Source: a virus
Lineage: Duplodnaviria; Heunggongvirae; Uroviricota; Caudoviricetes
Length of the DNA: 4,669 nt
Direction: 5' to 3' (one strand)
Virus record (IMG/VR): IMGVR_UViG_2565956719_000007
Under the pieces are notes generated by a model. That model was not told where the DNA came from. It searched no databases and was given only the letters and a program-made list of their open reading frames with translations. The translations under genes were made by a program, and so were the position numbers. Shown here piece after piece: positions 1 through 4,669 of the stretch (the first letter of the stretch is position 1; the number at the start of each line of letters is the position of its first letter).

Positions 1-51
1 GCAGAAAAAGCTTATTATGCTTCCATCGGAAACGATGATCTGGCAGCCTGA
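1..51 (+). CDS. IS3-family transposase OrfB, C-terminal fragment (start lies upstream of the window)
   Basis: Frame 1 is open from the window edge and translates to AEKAYYASIGNDDLAA before TGA at 49-51, immediately upstream of the terminal inverted repeat. Confidence 0.7.
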   Translation, partial: AEKAYYASIGNDDLAA

Positions 52-68
52 GTTCACAGATAAAACAC

Positions 69-93
69 TCTCCAGGAAACCCGGGGCGGTTCA
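69..93. repeat. Terminal inverted repeat (right end) of the left IS copy
   Basis: TCTCCAGGAAACCCGGGGCGGTTCA matches the reverse complement of 4576-4600 at 23 of 25 positions (9 identical, 2 mismatches AA/TT, 14 identical). A 14-mer inverted match is not expected by chance in 4.7 kb. Confidence 0.85.
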
Positions 94-602
94 CTGTTAA
101 CACTGCCACTGTTGGGCAACTTCAGAACCACTGTCTCACCGCATTATCTCAAGGCGCAACTGAATTAAATATCCATATATCAAGTCAGGGAGGGGAAACT
201 GCTGCTGGCTTTACTGCGTATAACTTTCTTAAGTCACTCCCTGTTACCGTTAGAACTCACAACATAAGCAATGTTGAATCCATAGCTAATATCGTTTTCC
301 TGGCTGGCTCAGAACGTTTCGCAAACCCATTATCAAGATTCCTGTTACATCCTCTATTATGGTGCTTTGCCTCCCCAGCCGCCGACCATGCCAGATTGAG
401 AGAGTACGGGAAATGCCTCGATAACGATCTTGATCGCTTCGTTGAGACGTTCAATATCGACATCGGAACCCATATTAGGTGGGCATCCCTGATAGCAGAC
501 TCGACCATTTTGGATGCTAACAAGGCTCTTGAGCATGGCATAATTAATTCCATAAAAACTGCAAGGCTGGCATCCAATCAGGCAAACTGGTGGGTTGTTT
601 GA
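94..602 (+). pseudogene. ClpP-family (peptidase S14-like) serine protease homolog, 5'-truncated at the IS junction
   Basis: This frame is open from 39 to the TGA at 600-602 but has no ATG/GTG/TTG before 396, and everything left of 94 is IS sequence. By eye it aligns with E. coli ClpP: ISSQGGETAAG to INSPGGVITAG, VESIANIVFLAGSERFANPLSRFLLHP to [46 protein letters not shown] to FLSAPEAVEYGLVDSI. Candidate catalytic Ser (in VESIA) and His (in LLHP) are retained. About 20-45 N-terminal residues appear to be missing. Confidence 0.6.
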
Positions 603-627
603 TGGGTAAATCATGATTACTCCTTAT

Positions 628-652
628 AAAAAACCCACCTGACGGTGGGTTT
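628..652. terminator. Bidirectional rho-independent terminator between convergent genes
   Basis: AAAAAA-CCCACC-TGAC-GGTGGG-TTT: a 6-bp GC-rich stem with a 4-nt loop, an A-run on one side and a T-run on the other. It sits between the + strand stop at 600-602 and the minus-strand stop at 651-653. Confidence 0.6.
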
Positions 653-1100
653 AGTCAAACATAGTGTTTCTAAAGTCTCTCGCATACCCTGCTAACACTC
701 TCATTCTATTATGATTGTTAGCAGACATGTGAGCTACAGGATGAAAAAGAGCAATCAATGAATACCTGTTCTCATCAAAAAGATTTTGTGCATAAACGAG
801 AGCGGTATTGGATGTTTTATGCCACTGCAACTTTTGCGGTGTGCTGATATCTGTGCCATTTTTTATTGGCTCAAATTTATTTTCACCAATTGCTAAATGA
901 AGGTGCATAAGGCCTGCATCTTCAATATCAGGAGGTCGATGATAAGAGGTGTCTCTGCCAAAATAGCTGGGCAACGTTCCCGTAGACTTGTAGATGATAA
1001 AATCATCTACAAGTGTTTGTTTTAAATCAGGAAACTCAACAAAAACCGGGGAGAAAAAATAGTCAAAACTATCCTGATTATATTCCACGGTTACTTGCAT
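651..1100 (-). CDS. YafO-family-like toxin (putative ribosome-dependent mRNA interferase), 149 aa
   Basis: ATG at 1100 is preceded by GAGGT with 5-nt spacing, and that SD overlaps the upstream gene's TGA stop. From memory of E. coli YafO the protein shares motifs: IIYKSTGTLPSYFGRDTSY with ISYKRDGVLPDTFGRD, MHLHLA with HIHLA, LQWHKTS with LRQWSKTS, and a similar length. Family assignment is unverified. Confidence 0.55.
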   Translation of the reverse strand: MQVTVEYNQDSFDYFFSPVFVEFPDLKQTLVDDFIIYKSTGTLPSYFGRDTSYHRPPDIEDAGLMHLHLAIGENKFEPIKNGTDISTPQKLQWHKTSNTALVYAQNLFDENRYSLIALFHPVAHMSANNHNRMRVLAGYARDFRNTMFD

Positions 1101-1108
1101 GTTTTACC

Positions 1109-1675
1109 TCAGTGGAAGTTACCAGAGTGAAACACACGAGTCCCGTGCTCAGCAAGCGCACGCAAACCAGCCATATCTACGGAACTATCAAAAACAACCG
1201 GAACACATGAGCGTTGTTTAATAAGACTATTCAGGTTGGTTACGGCAGATCTGGCATCAGCAACAACGATATAGATATCTCTTGCGATCTCTTTAAAATC
1301 AGCAGAAGCTTCTTTGAATACCGATTTCATTGCCCCTTCAAGTCCTCTCAATTGATGCTCTATCAATCGAGACTTTTCTGGTTCAATGATAGACAACACA
1401 TTGTCTACATTCTCATCGGTAGCGTTTGCAAGAACACGATAAGCGTATTTCAGCATTCGAGACAATTCTTTAATCGAAGACACCGCCTCATGAAGCTCAT
1501 CATTAGCCCGTTCACTGCTGAATGAGGATTGATGGTAAGCGTGCTGAACGTTATCAGTAACAACCACCTCACAACTGAACGCAGAAGCTTGCTGTAATAG
1601 CAAACCTATTGCGACTCCAGCTTTGGCAGCGTTCAAGCTAAACATTTCATCAATCCCATTAGTCTCATTGCTCAT
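1109..1675 (-). CDS. Hypothetical 188-aa protein, first gene of the operon; candidate antitoxin or partner of the YafO-like protein, no recognisable domain
   Basis: ATG at 1675 is preceded by AAGGAGGT with 5-nt spacing, so I prefer it to the TTG at 1705 used by the ORF track. Its stop at 1109-1111 lies 8 nt from the next start. The protein is acidic and probably helical, with no HTH or nucleotide-binding motif evident by eye. Confidence 0.7.
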   Translation of the reverse strand: MSNETNGIDEMFSLNAAKAGVAIGLLLQQASAFSCEVVVTDNVQHAYHQSSFSSERANDELHEAVSSIKELSRMLKYAYRVLANATDENVDNVLSIIEPEKSRLIEHQLRGLEGAMKSVFKEASADFKEIARDIYIVVADARSAVTNLNSLIKQRSCVPVVFDSSVDMAGLRALAEHGTRVFHSGNFH

Positions 1676-1850
1676 ACAAACCTCCTTCTTATCGGAGATT
1701 ATCAATAGCTATGCATCCATTGAATACACGCTATGCGCAATAAGTTTACGTCACGTGATATCATTATGCAACCACCGTTCTATCACCGACTAACTTTACT
1801 CCCACTCCTATACATCATCTGGTATCCTGCGCAAAACTAAGGAGGTTGGT
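1676..1850. promoter_or_regulatory. Divergent intergenic control region between the minus-strand operon and the + strand membrane-protein gene
   Basis: A 175-bp AT-rich gap between divergent starts. On the minus strand a candidate sigma70 promoter is TTGCAT (1771-1766), a 17-nt spacer, then TAAACT (1748-1743). The spacer holds two overlapping 8-bp palindromes, TCACGTGA (1751-1758) and TGATATCA (1756-1763). On the + strand a possible extended -10 TGgTATCCT lies at 1820-1828, before the SD at 1839-1845. Promoter calls are weak matches. Confidence 0.4.
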
Positions 1851-2201
1851 GTGAATGCTCAGTCTGTCATCATGGTTTTCCTTGGGCTGATTGTCGCAAA
1901 ACTATATCCAGACTGGTGGAAAGGGGCATTAGCTACTGTCGCCATCTATTTGCTTTTATCCATCGTTAAGCGATCACTCGCTGAGACCGTAAATCAAGCA
2001 AAACGTTTCTCATTTAAGAGTTTAATAAACTATGTTACTGGGCTTATTTTTTGCCTTTCAATTCTGATCGCTTCGGCTTTTTTGCCCGTATCAATAGCTA
2101 ATTTTTTTGGCGCACCATATGAGGTAGGTTATCTATTCTCTGTTTCCTGTCTTGCCATTGCTCTTCTTTACCTGTGGACGAGATCAAAGAATAAAAATTA
2201 G
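1851..2201 (+). CDS. Small integral membrane protein (116 aa, about 4 predicted TM helices); possible superinfection-exclusion or immunity-type protein
   Basis: GTG start at 1851 with AAGGAGG 5 nt upstream. Four hydrophobic stretches are visible (VIMVFLGLIVAKLY, ALATVAIYLLLSIV, GLIFCLSILIASAFLPVSIANFF, YLFSVSCLAIALLYLW) and the C-terminus is basic (RSKNKN). Function is inferred from context only. Confidence 0.7.
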   Translation: MNAQSVIMVFLGLIVAKLYPDWWKGALATVAIYLLLSIVKRSLAETVNQAKRFSFKSLINYVTGLIFCLSILIASAFLPVSIANFFGAPYEVGYLFSVSCLAIALLYLWTRSKNKN

Positions 2202-2213
2202 CCATCCGTGGCT
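2191..2213 (-). terminator. Candidate rho-independent terminator for the minus-strand transcript, overlapping the 3' end of the convergent membrane-protein gene
   Basis: On the minus strand AGCCA-CGGA-TGGCT (5-bp stem) is followed by AATTTTTAT, 6 nt after the TAA stop of the 670-aa gene. The stem is short. Confidence 0.3.
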
Positions 2214-2218
2214 GCCAG

Positions 2219-4231
2219 TTATTGAGCTTCTTTTTGTGATGCCTGTGCGACTCTGGTGAGCGATTGTGTGACCGTACTGATCGCTCTGTCATATGCTGTG
2301 CTACCTTTTGGCGTATTTGCCAGACGTAACAAGGCATTTCGTATAACAGGGCTTTCGTATGCCTTCGCAGCTCCTCCTACGACACCAGCAGCAGGAACAA
2401 CAAACGCAGCCGTTTTTAGCATCCCCGCTAATACTGCTGCGTTTATGATGCCACCACCAACTAACAATCCATAAAGCTGCTGACCATTTAAGTTTTGAAC
2501 GTTCGCTTTTGCCGCGTGTCTTGTATCGTTGAGGTATTTAATAACGCCGTCCAGTTCCTTTCCATGTACGCCTTTAAAGAAAGTTGCTGATTGCTTCCTG
2601 TTCCGGTGTAACGCATTAATAAACTTTTCAACACTAATATTTCCAGACGGATCAGTCGCCTTATCTACAGCATTCTGAACTATGGCTGCTCGTGCGTTTT
2701 GCCTACCATTGTCATCCAGAAGCCTGTAAAGCTGAGAACGTTCTGATGGGTTTTGGCTAAAAACGAGTTTTGTTACATCCTCAGGTGTAGCCTTGCCGCT
2801 GGCTATTGCCTTTTGAACGCGCGTTCTTCCCATCATGTCATTGAATCTAGCCCATGAGCGATCAACCCTAGACATATTGGCAGCTTCTTCTGAGCCTAGT
2901 TTTTGGGATACTGCTTTTTTCATATCCGCTGTATATGCCTTGTAGACAATATCGCTGGCTTTCTGGAGCGTGTCTTTATCAACAGTCTCGTTTGAATTCA
3001 TGAACCGCTTTCGAAGGTCAGTTCTGTTTTCTCTCGCCAGACGCAGGTCATTGGGTCCGCTGGTGATATCGTCTTTAAATTGCTGCAAGACTTTTACCGC
3101 GGCTCTATCCTGAGATTTGCCCGGGCGGCTTAACACGGCAATCTGATTGTCGATAGCTTTTACCGTGTTTGAGAGATCGACAGGGGTATCCCCCATAGCG
3201 TCAATTATGCGGTTATATCGCTTTCCTGCTGCCTCAATGAATTTTTGTTGCCCTTTAGTCGCAGATTCATAAAGCTGTTTATCAGAAATGCCACCCAGAC
3301 CATCGCTAAATGTTCTGACTAAATTTTCTCGTGCTTGTTGTTGATTCAGCCGATTCTTACCGGTTCCAAAAAAAGGAACTCTTTCGCCTAATGTCTGAGC
3401 CTGACTCTGCATAAAGGTTTTATCTTTCAGCGTGTCACTGGTCATTAACGGCAGGTTTCTTTCCGACGCAAAATCGACAGCAGCCTTTGCTTCCGGTGAC
3501 ATCTCACCGCGAACAGCCCTGGAAACCGCACTAACTGTATTTTCCAGCCCCTTGCCAACACCACCAATGCCAGCAGAAATTACCGTTTGTGCAGGATCAA
3601 TATCTTCTCCGCCAGCAAGGCTGGTGCCACCCTGTAGTGCTAAATCTGTAGCAGCTGATTTCCCTATGGCACCAAGCACCGTTCCAGCCCTGCCCGCTGG
3701 TGTGAACGCTAACGCATTAGCAAGAAACGAAGTCAGGTCTTGCGGTGATAAACCTGGCTTGTTCAGGGCATAATCACCGGATGGCAGGGAAACGATAGTG
3801 TTACCCTTCTCATCCTGCCTTAATTTCGCCCCCATACTCTGAAGAATCTTTTCCTGAGACGCGTCGGAGCCGAAAAGTTGAGACCATCCAGCCTTCAGGG
3901 CATCCATGCTTAGTGAGTTCAACTCAGGGGCAGCCCCAACATTTTGCAGTCTCTCCATTTCTGGTGTCATTCGGCTTTCACCGGTAACGGCATCGCGCAT
4001 TGCAGCACCTAAAACAGCCCCTTGCTCAGCAGAGCGATCTAGTCCTTCCTTCTGCTGAGTGGCAAGCTGTGCATATCCTGATGCAAGTGAGTTGTCTGCT
4101 GGCGATTGCTGAACACCTTGTTGTGTTGGCGCTGACTGACCAGCAAAATACTCATCAATGGCGGACCCAATATCTTCCGTGCTCGTACCATCAGGAAAGG
4201 TAAATGTCTTACCATTTGCAGTTACTTTCAT
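2219..4231 (-). CDS. Large 670-aa protein, probably a phage DNA-ejection (injection) protein of P22-like podoviruses, gp16/gp20-like
   Basis: A 2 kb ORF with ATGATGA at its start overlapping the upstream gene's TGA. The second ATG (4231) is chosen because GGTGG lies 4 nt upstream of it. The protein is Ala/Gly/Gln/Ser-rich with a about 40-residue hydrophobic segment near the C-terminus (LYGLLVGGGIINAAVLAGMLKTAAFVVPAAGVVGGAAKAY). The N-terminus MKVTANGKTF..PDG.S.EDIG.AIDEYF resembles my recollection of P22-like ejection proteins. It is certainly a real gene; the product call is tentative. Confidence 0.5.
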   Translation of the reverse strand: MKVTANGKTFTFPDGTSTEDIGSAIDEYFAGQSAPTQQGVQQSPADNSLASGYAQLATQQKEGLDRSAEQGAVLGAAMRDAVTGESRMTPEMERLQNVGAAPELNSLSMDALKAGWSQLFGSDASQEKILQSMGAKLRQDEKGNTIVSLPSGDYALNKPGLSPQDLTSFLANALAFTPAGRAGTVLGAIGKSAATDLALQGGTSLAGGEDIDPAQTVISAGIGGVGKGLENTVSAVSRAVRGEMSPEAKAAVDFASERNLPLMTSDTLKDKTFMQSQAQTLGERVPFFGTGKNRLNQQQARENLVRTFSDGLGGISDKQLYESATKGQQKFIEAAGKRYNRIIDAMGDTPVDLSNTVKAIDNQIAVLSRPGKSQDRAAVKVLQQFKDDITSGPNDLRLARENRTDLRKRFMNSNETVDKDTLQKASDIVYKAYTADMKKAVSQKLGSEEAANMSRVDRSWARFNDMMGRTRVQKAIASGKATPEDVTKLVFSQNPSERSQLYRLLDDNGRQNARAAIVQNAVDKATDPSGNISVEKFINALHRNRKQSATFFKGVHGKELDGVIKYLNDTRHAAKANVQNLNGQQLYGLLVGGGIINAAVLAGMLKTAAFVVPAAGVVGGAAKAYESPVIRNALLRLANTPKGSTAYDRAISTVTQSLTRVAQASQKEAQ

Positions 4232-4575
4232 CATTCCACCGTAAATTGAATGCCTGATTTTGACGTGTAGCTACCTCCTGCTGATTGCTGAGTAGCTGGC
4301 TGTTGCCTTGATGATTTCTTCCCGCCATTACCAACATTAACGTTATATTGCTGGTTGTAATTGTCGGTATATTGCTGAATGTCGCGCATTGATTGTTGCA
4401 GCGCTTCAGGACTTGAGAAATCAGGCTTTGGCATACCCTGAAAATACCTATTGGCCTCTGCTTCGGTGTTGATGCCAGATGCCCCCATATCTCGGGCTGC
4501 TGCAATCCCCTGATTTTGCATTTTGCCCATGATTCGCTGTGCAGCGTTGTATAGCCTCCTCTCCTCAACACCAGA
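4231..4575 (-). pseudogene. Upstream ejection-protein-like gene, 5'-truncated by the IS insertion (C-terminal 114 codons remain); translationally coupled to the 670-aa gene
   Basis: The frame is open from the IS junction to the TGA at 4233-4231 and ends ...[19 protein letters not shown]. The part of the track ORF beyond 4575 is IS sequence with only a TTG at the window edge. Internal ATGs at 4528 and 4519 lack a convincing SD. Confidence 0.5.
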
Positions 4576-4600
4576 TGAACCGCCCCGGGAATCCTGGAGA
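4576..4600. repeat. Terminal inverted repeat (left end) of the right IS copy
   Basis: TGAACCGCCCCGGGAATCCTGGAGA is the inverted partner of 69-93 and begins with the TG dinucleotide typical of IS3-family ends. Confidence 0.85.
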
Positions 4601-4629
4601 CTAAACTTCCTGAGAAAGAGGTAAACAGG

Positions 4630-4669
4630 ATGACTAAAAATACTCGTTTTTCCCCCGAAGTCCGTCAAC
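4630..4669 (+). CDS. IS3-family transposase OrfA, N-terminal fragment (continues beyond the window)
   Basis: ATG at 4630 with a canonical SD; translation is [13 protein letters not shown]. It was missed by the ORF track because it runs off the window edge. Confidence 0.8.

Follow-up and report, generated by a model that had tools for sequence, protein, structure and literature searches.

The stretch of DNA analysed here, hereafter the window, comprises 4,669 nt and is filed as a virus (Caudoviricetes; IMG/VR record IMGVR_UViG_2565956719_000007); each of its ends lies inside a copy of an insertion sequence (IS). We conclude, with a probability of roughly 85%, that the window is a draft-genome contig ending inside collapsed IS copies, and that its interior is the in-place leftover of a decaying CUS-3-like prophage at the argW-dsdC locus of Escherichia coli, with the IS copies as scars of stepwise erosion. 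On this reading, a 4482-bp piece of prophage, still at its native argW-dsdC site and not moved by the IS elements, would lie between two directly oriented 1310-bp IS copies. In an older event, an IS would have entered a ClpP-like gene at codon 10, giving a junction common to the avian pathogenic E. coli (APEC) strain E12053. A later, lineage-private event would have joined the 3' end of a gp20-type gene through an IS to the gene erf with the loss of 24.6 kb, probably via recombination between same-orientation IS copies or an IS-adjacent deletion. The initial annotation of the window had proposed a composite-transposon-like module that could be mobilised as a unit; the cargo proved to be native and colinear with its prophage, and the unit was found in no other context.

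Terminal IS copies and the source assembly

A repeat finder returned a 25-nt inverted match between positions 69-93 and 4576-4600, with 23/25 positions complementary, 4482 nt between the arms and a chance expectation of about 3e-5 for DNA of this size. The earlier attribution of this match to IS termini was borne out: window 1-93 is the last 93 nt, and window 4576-4669 the first 94 nt, of a 1310-bp IS, with 0 mismatches against eight independent full-length copies in related complete genomes. At the left end, frame 1 of 1-51 translates to AEKAYYASIGNDDLAA followed by a stop, the C-terminus of OrfB. At the right end, the Shine-Dalgarno-like AGAGG lies upstream of an ATG at 4630, leaving 13 codons of OrfA within the window. 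Translations and full-length copies agree with the proposed placement of an OrfB C-terminus and right repeat on the left, and of a left repeat, ribosome-binding site and OrfA start on the right. Both pieces are on the + strand, so that the two copies are in direct orientation. The terminal features are as follows.

1-93, + strand: 3' end of the IS, with the last 16 OrfB codons and their stop (49-51), then the right terminal repeat, whose final letters, ...GGTTCA, run to 93
69-93, no strand: arm of the right terminal inverted repeat (IRR), 23/25 complementary to 4576-4600
4576-4669, + strand: 5' end of the same type of IS, with the left terminal repeat at 4576-4600, AGAGG and the OrfA ATG at 4630

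The termini TGAACC...GGTTCA form imperfect terminal inverted repeats ending TG...CA, as required for the IS3 family. The window holds just 16 OrfB and 13 OrfA codons, and the coding and frameshift features were read on full-length copies with ends identical to it. In these copies, OrfA matches HTH_Tnp_1 (PF01527) and OrfB the rve/DDE domain (PF00665), the NCBIfam IS3-family model NF033516 scores 304 bits (cut-off 160), and the ALIL frameshift pseudoknot (Rfam RF01497) scores 120 bits, with OrfA and OrfB joined by a -1 frameshift. Clean insertions of the IS give 3-bp duplications, CCC and ACC in two copies of strain E10. Over 795 nt, the IS has 100% identity with a partial copy labelled IS629 family by the Prokaryotic Genome Annotation Pipeline (PGAP); over 522 nt it has 99.8% identity with a copy labelled IS3411 family, and over 1310 nt 96.2% with an IS1203 copy. 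IS1203 and IS3411 are regarded as isoforms of IS629 (PMC3271280). The element at the window ends is a member of the IS3 family in the IS629/IS3411/IS1203 isoform group, and the initial call of two same-orientation IS3-family copies holds.

The chimeric open reading frame spanning the right junction led to a single record, scaffold KI538723.1 (GCA_000495015.1, a draft E. coli genome). The window is an exact substring of this scaffold, in which it forms a single contig between runs of 2780 N on the left and 1060 N on the right, and both ends of this contig stop within IS sequence. A 4860-bp contig of a second draft assembly, GCA_002761615.1, contains the entire window exactly, its IS tail reaching 127 nt and its IS head 251 nt; since it repeats the window exactly, the IS-prophage-IS arrangement is reproducible. 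The neat bracketing of the segment is partly an assembly effect, because the contigs end inside multi-copy IS elements and short-read assemblers break within such repeats. As this segment illustrates, IS brackets at the ends of short contigs are largely an assembly signature. We infer the full-length state of the right copy from the gap size, and the presence of a left copy from its terminal 93-127 nt. Across the right gap, 94 nt, 1060 N and 95 nt amount to about 1249, which, set against 1310 bp, is compatible with one full IS copy.

The prophage remnant and its junctions

The interior of the window (94-4575, 4482 bp) is colinear with, and 100% identical to, part of the prophage of E. coli S88 that lies between tRNA-Arg/intS and dsdC, as expected from the earlier assignment of this segment to a prophage. 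The same 100% colinear match was obtained in 37 other complete genomes, mostly K1 ExPEC (extraintestinal pathogenic E. coli) and APEC. In S88, the P22-type layout runs from the integrase through a hexapeptide acyltransferase, tailspike, ant, arc, an mnt-like gene, the ClpP-like gene and a YafO-family toxin homologue to a 188-aa protein, a small membrane protein and gp16-, gp20- and gp7-type ejection genes, followed by virion, lysis, replication and immunity genes and then erf and early genes. The late gene order (gp7, gp20, gp16, then mnt/arc/ant and tailspike) is of P22 type, as judged from the S88 annotation and from PF16928, PF26808 and PF25688. The prophage site lies between argW (tRNA-Arg) and dsdC, with an intS-type integrase and with dsdC at the far end, and CUS-3 is known to integrate between argW and dsdC (PMC9659370). 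The hexapeptide acyltransferase gene of the source scaffold carries a long run of GAGTCTT, the reverse complement of the heptad AAGACTC, and the neuO acetyltransferase gene contains a VNTR (variable-number tandem repeat) of the heptad 5'-AAGACTC-3' (PMC3046976). The neuO heptad run and the argW-dsdC site therefore identify the prophage as CUS-3-like, that is, P22-like and of K1 type; the assignment is by published descriptions of CUS-3. The neuO VNTR (L006, the source locus, reverse strand, about 2500-2690 in window orientation) is broken by a 10-N gap in the source scaffold, and its repeat number and phase ON/OFF state are therefore not readable from this assembly.

Comparison with S88 also bore out the 5' truncation of both junction genes exactly at the IS ends: the ClpP-like gene lacks 28/537 nt and the gp20-type gene 1107/1452 nt. 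The initial annotation had proposed inspecting the outer flanks for the missing 5' parts and for target-site duplications. On the right side, the sequence beyond the gap consists of the last 95 nt of the IS on the + strand followed by erf without its first 22 nt, in place of the missing 5' part of the gp20-type gene. In S88 (coordinates of locus L007), 12000 is the last position of the inner flank and 36579 the first of the outer flank, so that 24,578 bp are replaced by the right IS, comprising virion, lysis, replication and immunity genes. The flanks read AGA|IS|GAC, with no target-site duplication. Given the missing 24,578 bp and the lack of a duplication, the right IS is therefore a deletion scar and not a simple insertion. 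The earlier proposal of IS insertion into an accessory region of a prophage stands as regards the prophage and fails on the right, where the junction lies in a structural ejection gene and the IS did not arrive by simple insertion. The right junctions are reproduced in GCA_002761615.1. Neither the right inner junction nor the IS|erf outer junction was found in complete E. coli genomes (0/5,426), and the exact 42-nt right-junction sequence had no match in GTDB representative genomes or JGI metagenome contigs.

The closed genome of APEC E12053 has the left junction (IS|CTGTT...) with every base identical. Its IS is bordered on the outer side by what is left of a tailspike gene, and no duplication is present, pointing again to a deletion. 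With the left junction common to E12053 and the right junctions in none of the complete genomes searched, the left event would be the older and the right private to one lineage. Relatives carry the same IS elsewhere in the prophage, in tailspike, ant, gp16, gp20, gp7, gp10 and terminase genes, and one IS-bounded inversion and several deletions are present among them. When compared across genomes, the prophage is intact in S88, and the IS-flanked unit was seen solely in the argW-dsdC prophage, not as a mobile segment elsewhere.

Recombination between the two IS copies had been expected to delete or invert the interior. Deletion is possible and inversion is not: the copies are direct repeats, and recombination between them therefore excises the interior, leaving one IS. 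On general knowledge of direct repeats of 1.3 kb, RecA-dependent recombination between them would be the realistic way for the interior to be lost in future. A cargo-deleted product or relative, sought through the IS|erf outer junction, was absent from the complete genomes.

Several points weigh against the reconstruction. On the left, neither the IS copy nor the flank outside it is assembled, both falling within the 2780-N gap of KI538723.1; the size of this gap mismatches both a simple insertion (about 5.8 kb expected) and the E12053 arrangement (about 1.5 kb expected). The contig to the left of this gap is free of IS sequence and breaks off 141 nt into the 3' end of the tailspike gene. For the order and orientation across the scaffold gaps we rely on the submitters' scaffolding, and we infer both the sequence of the events and the way in which the 24.6 kb were lost.

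Published accounts of the element and of the phage are in keeping with erosion. In a survey of IS629, 62% of copies lay in prophages and duplications were kept in 21/47 (PMC3271280), and IS629 has been linked to genomic deletions (PMC3271280; PMC9943667). Deletions beside the IS that arise by excision dependent on the IS-excision enhancer (IEE) range in size from a few nucleotides to >40 kb (PMC9943667), and the CUS-3-like phage has been described as 'prone to decay' (PMC9659370).

Individual junctions in the relatives record further rearrangement. The E12053 copy inside gp16 (L001, 8864-10173) has no duplication and lacks 6 bp of native sequence, AACCCT, indicating a junction altered after insertion. 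In AH19K002 (L003, 6002-7337), a full IS is followed directly by an additional right terminal repeat of 26 bp (CTCTCCAGGAAACCCGGGGCGGTTCA) ahead of a truncated ant; the extra repeat is probably the remnant of a second, deleted IS. In BEN5202 (L004, 6001-9656), an inverted 5' piece of the tailspike gene lies between two inverted IS copies, and if the flanks are exchanged again one copy regains a TTC duplication, the signature of inversion by IS-IS recombination.

Codons 9-10 of the ClpP-like gene (window 94; S88 locus L007, 7514-7521) form an insertion hot spot, a 4-bp span having taken at least three IS629-type insertions independently. E10 carries a 96%-identical IS variant in + orientation with the duplication CCC. 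The window, E12053 and GCA_002761615.1 share a junction in which the IRR abuts CTGTT, whereas in BEN5202, FY26 and NCTC11151 the left terminal inverted repeat (IRL) abuts GCCCTGTT. The idea that the window-type and BEN5202-type junctions are one event flipped by recombination was rejected, because homologous recombination within the IS cannot yield a switch between IRR and IRL at positions 3 bp apart. The sequence ATGCCCTG has just two forward-strand copies in the 40.4-kb S88 prophage, and these are the native sites of the two window junctions (window 94 and 4575; L007 7514 and 12000). At 5/9 IRL-side junctions, TG comes next in the native sequence, as at the end of the IS itself. This coincidence, together with the TG continuation, may reflect a target preference of the IS, as judged from the junction sequences. 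A survey of IS629 reported no sequence-based target (PMC3271280). The hot spot and the junctions at ATGCCCTG are a point of possible specialist interest.

Genes of the cargo and alternative explanations

Between the IS ends lie two truncated genes at the junctions and four complete ones.

94-602, + strand: 5'-truncated ClpP-like serine protease gene, cut exactly at the IS end, with the first 28 of 537 nt missing relative to S88
651-1100, - strand: YafO-family toxin homologue, 149 aa; PF13957 at 79 bits (Pfam cut-off 25); phrog_1651
1109-1675, - strand: 188-aa protein, 8 nt upstream of the toxin gene; phrog_8416, function unknown
1851-2201, + strand: small hydrophobic protein, 116 aa from GTG (109 aa in PGAP), adjoining gp16; from the open reading frame (ORF) list
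2219-4234, - strand: intact P22 gp16-family DNA ejection protein; PF26808 (Phage_P22_gp16) on an identical product, phrog_770 (DNA transfer protein) and the PGAP name
4231-4575, - strand: last 345 nt of a gp20-type ejection (injectosome translocase) gene, cut exactly at the IS end, with the first 1107 of 1452 nt missing

The intact S88 homologue of the gp20-type gene matches PF16928 at 271 bits. The intact homologue of the ClpP-like gene matches PF00574 at 44 bits and also phage head-maturation protease families, with scores under the NCBIfam cut-offs. In the window, the truncated frame is open from 39, inside the IS (39-602, +), and its first in-frame ATG, GTG or TTG is at 396. PGAP treats the truncated gene differently among genomes, as a pseudogene or as an intact coding sequence starting inside the IS, possibly at ATA; these inconsistent starts therefore give rise to spurious chimeric protein entries, e.g. 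WP_071787753.1. In S88, the intact ClpP-like gene overlaps the mnt-like Arc-family repressor gene by 1 nt (L002, 7725-8509), and from this overlap the two are probably co-transcribed, the mnt-like gene being an immI-type regulator. A ClpP/head-protease-like gene is unusually placed here for a P22-like phage, and 99% identical copies occur in a few other coliphages.

The YafO homologue scores 79 bits against NF007377, below its equivalog cut-off of 153. Its upstream neighbour, the 188-aa protein, has no Pfam or NCBIfam family and a weak, non-significant PADLOC match; its position alone suggests that this ORF is a candidate antitoxin. The arrangement at 651-1675 (-) resembles a type II toxin-antitoxin pair, but the partner is unusually large and unclassified. 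The toxin module is present in 51/5,426 complete E. coli genomes, is chromosomal in 51/51 of these, and occurs in no phage record. The small hydrophobic protein has no informative family in Pfam, NCBIfam or PHROGs and no credible PADLOC match. Its gene occurs alone, at 92-94% identity, in most of about 230 further genomes that match just part of the module. The position of this gene beside gp16 is that of sieA in P22. None of the ClpP-like, YafO-family, 188-aa and 116-aa proteins received a credible defence-system assignment from PADLOC. The genes for these four cargo proteins are prophage morons between gp16 and the mnt-like gene, the ClpP-like and YafO-family proteins with predicted functions.

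Selection could have contributed to the survival of this block, through addiction to the YafO-family toxin and its putative antitoxin or through other useful morons. Such a contribution would complement stepwise erosion and is, in our estimate, rather unlikely. In its favour, the gene with the YafO_toxin domain adjoins an upstream partner ORF, the block is kept in the differently eroded prophages of E12053, BEN5202, E10, AH19K002 and the source strain, and retention of neuO under decay has been discussed (PMC9659370). However, there were no defence-system matches, the ClpP-like gene is itself truncated, and the module is confined to the 51 genomes given above, and its retention in a handful of relatives is explicable by shared ancestry.

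A functional composite transposon is far less probable. In this case, an IS-cargo-IS unit of about 7.1 kb would move with the outer terminal repeats as its ends, IRL from the left copy and IRR from the right, or as a circle of one IS and the cargo. The window does end in two IS3-family copies of like orientation, whose termini next to the cargo are intact. Tn3411, cited as a composite transposon, was reportedly found by Ishiguro and Sato in 1988 to be flanked by direct copies of IS3411. IS3-family composites exist, and an IS2-like pair in Burkholderia thailandensis moves as a circle of one IS and the intervening DNA (PMC6350997). The cargo of the window, however, is identical to and colinear with native prophage at the native locus, and the unit was found in no other context among the 5,426 complete E. 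coli genomes, 72,556 plasmids, metagenome contigs and GTDB representatives. A search of the plasmid collection with the interior gave just partial ejection-gene matches, from phage-plasmid-like records and a single mislabelled chromosome, and the unit itself was absent; in the phage collection, which lacks the CUS-3 reference record, no record covered >16% of the interior. The toxin module is chromosomal in every carrier genome, and the mismatched flanks of the right IS, joined to prophage DNA 24.6 kb away, are those of a deletion scar and not of a transposition product. We give very little credence to the idea that the arrangement is an incipient composite transposon, whose IS629-type direct repeats could copy out the YafO-family toxin module of phage origin, with its neighbours, and carry it to new replicons.

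Least probable of all is that the window derives from a single IS and the cargo, as an excised circle or an amplified tandem array misplaced in a linear scaffold: an IS tail at the start and an IS head at the end in the same orientation would also be expected from a circle or tandem repeat, and two assemblies break at the same repeat, but the scaffold has tailspike and neuO to the left and IS-tail|erf to the right, one IS would fill the right gap, the same left junction lies within the closed linear chromosome of E12053, and Pfam and NCBIfam profile searches found no replication function in the cargo.

Comparison with known systems

Stepwise erosion of a CUS-3-like prophage in place is best compared with four known systems. 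The element shares with IS629, IS3411 and IS1203 the length of 1310 bp, the TG...CA ends, imperfect inverted repeats of about 25 bp, the ALIL -1 frameshift, 3-bp duplications and a prophage location. It shows no substantive difference from them, and the host background is K1 ExPEC/APEC instead of O157. As in the IS629 group, many copies are without duplications after later rearrangement (PMC3271280).

Like Tn3411 and the B. thailandensis IS2-like 'megacircle', the segment consists of two direct IS3-family copies around non-IS DNA; in contrast to these, it has no sign of movement, its outer flanks are an N-gap on the left and prophage erf, with no duplication, on the right, and its cargo is native to the locus.

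With CUS-3 and its decayed derivatives, the prophage shares the site, the neuO heptad VNTR, the P22-type ejection genes and the mnt/arc/ant region, and it resembles the derivatives in an erosion of the documented kind, which shortens the neuO-dsdC distance. It differs from them in its particular state, tailspike'...IS-'ClpP...gp20'-IS-'erf, which is present in no complete genome searched. The segment adds a K1 ExPEC/APEC case in which IS629-type elements would have dismantled a CUS-3-like prophage while neuO and a small toxin-containing block survive; its significance beyond bookkeeping is small.

Finally, the right junction resembles IS629-associated deletions, including IEE-dependent ones, in that a large deletion (24.6 kb) abuts an intact IS end, whereas recombination between two IS copies accounts for this junction equally well. 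Both CUS-3 decay and IS629-linked deletions are documented, and the kind of event is already known, namely ordinary IS-driven prophage erosion.

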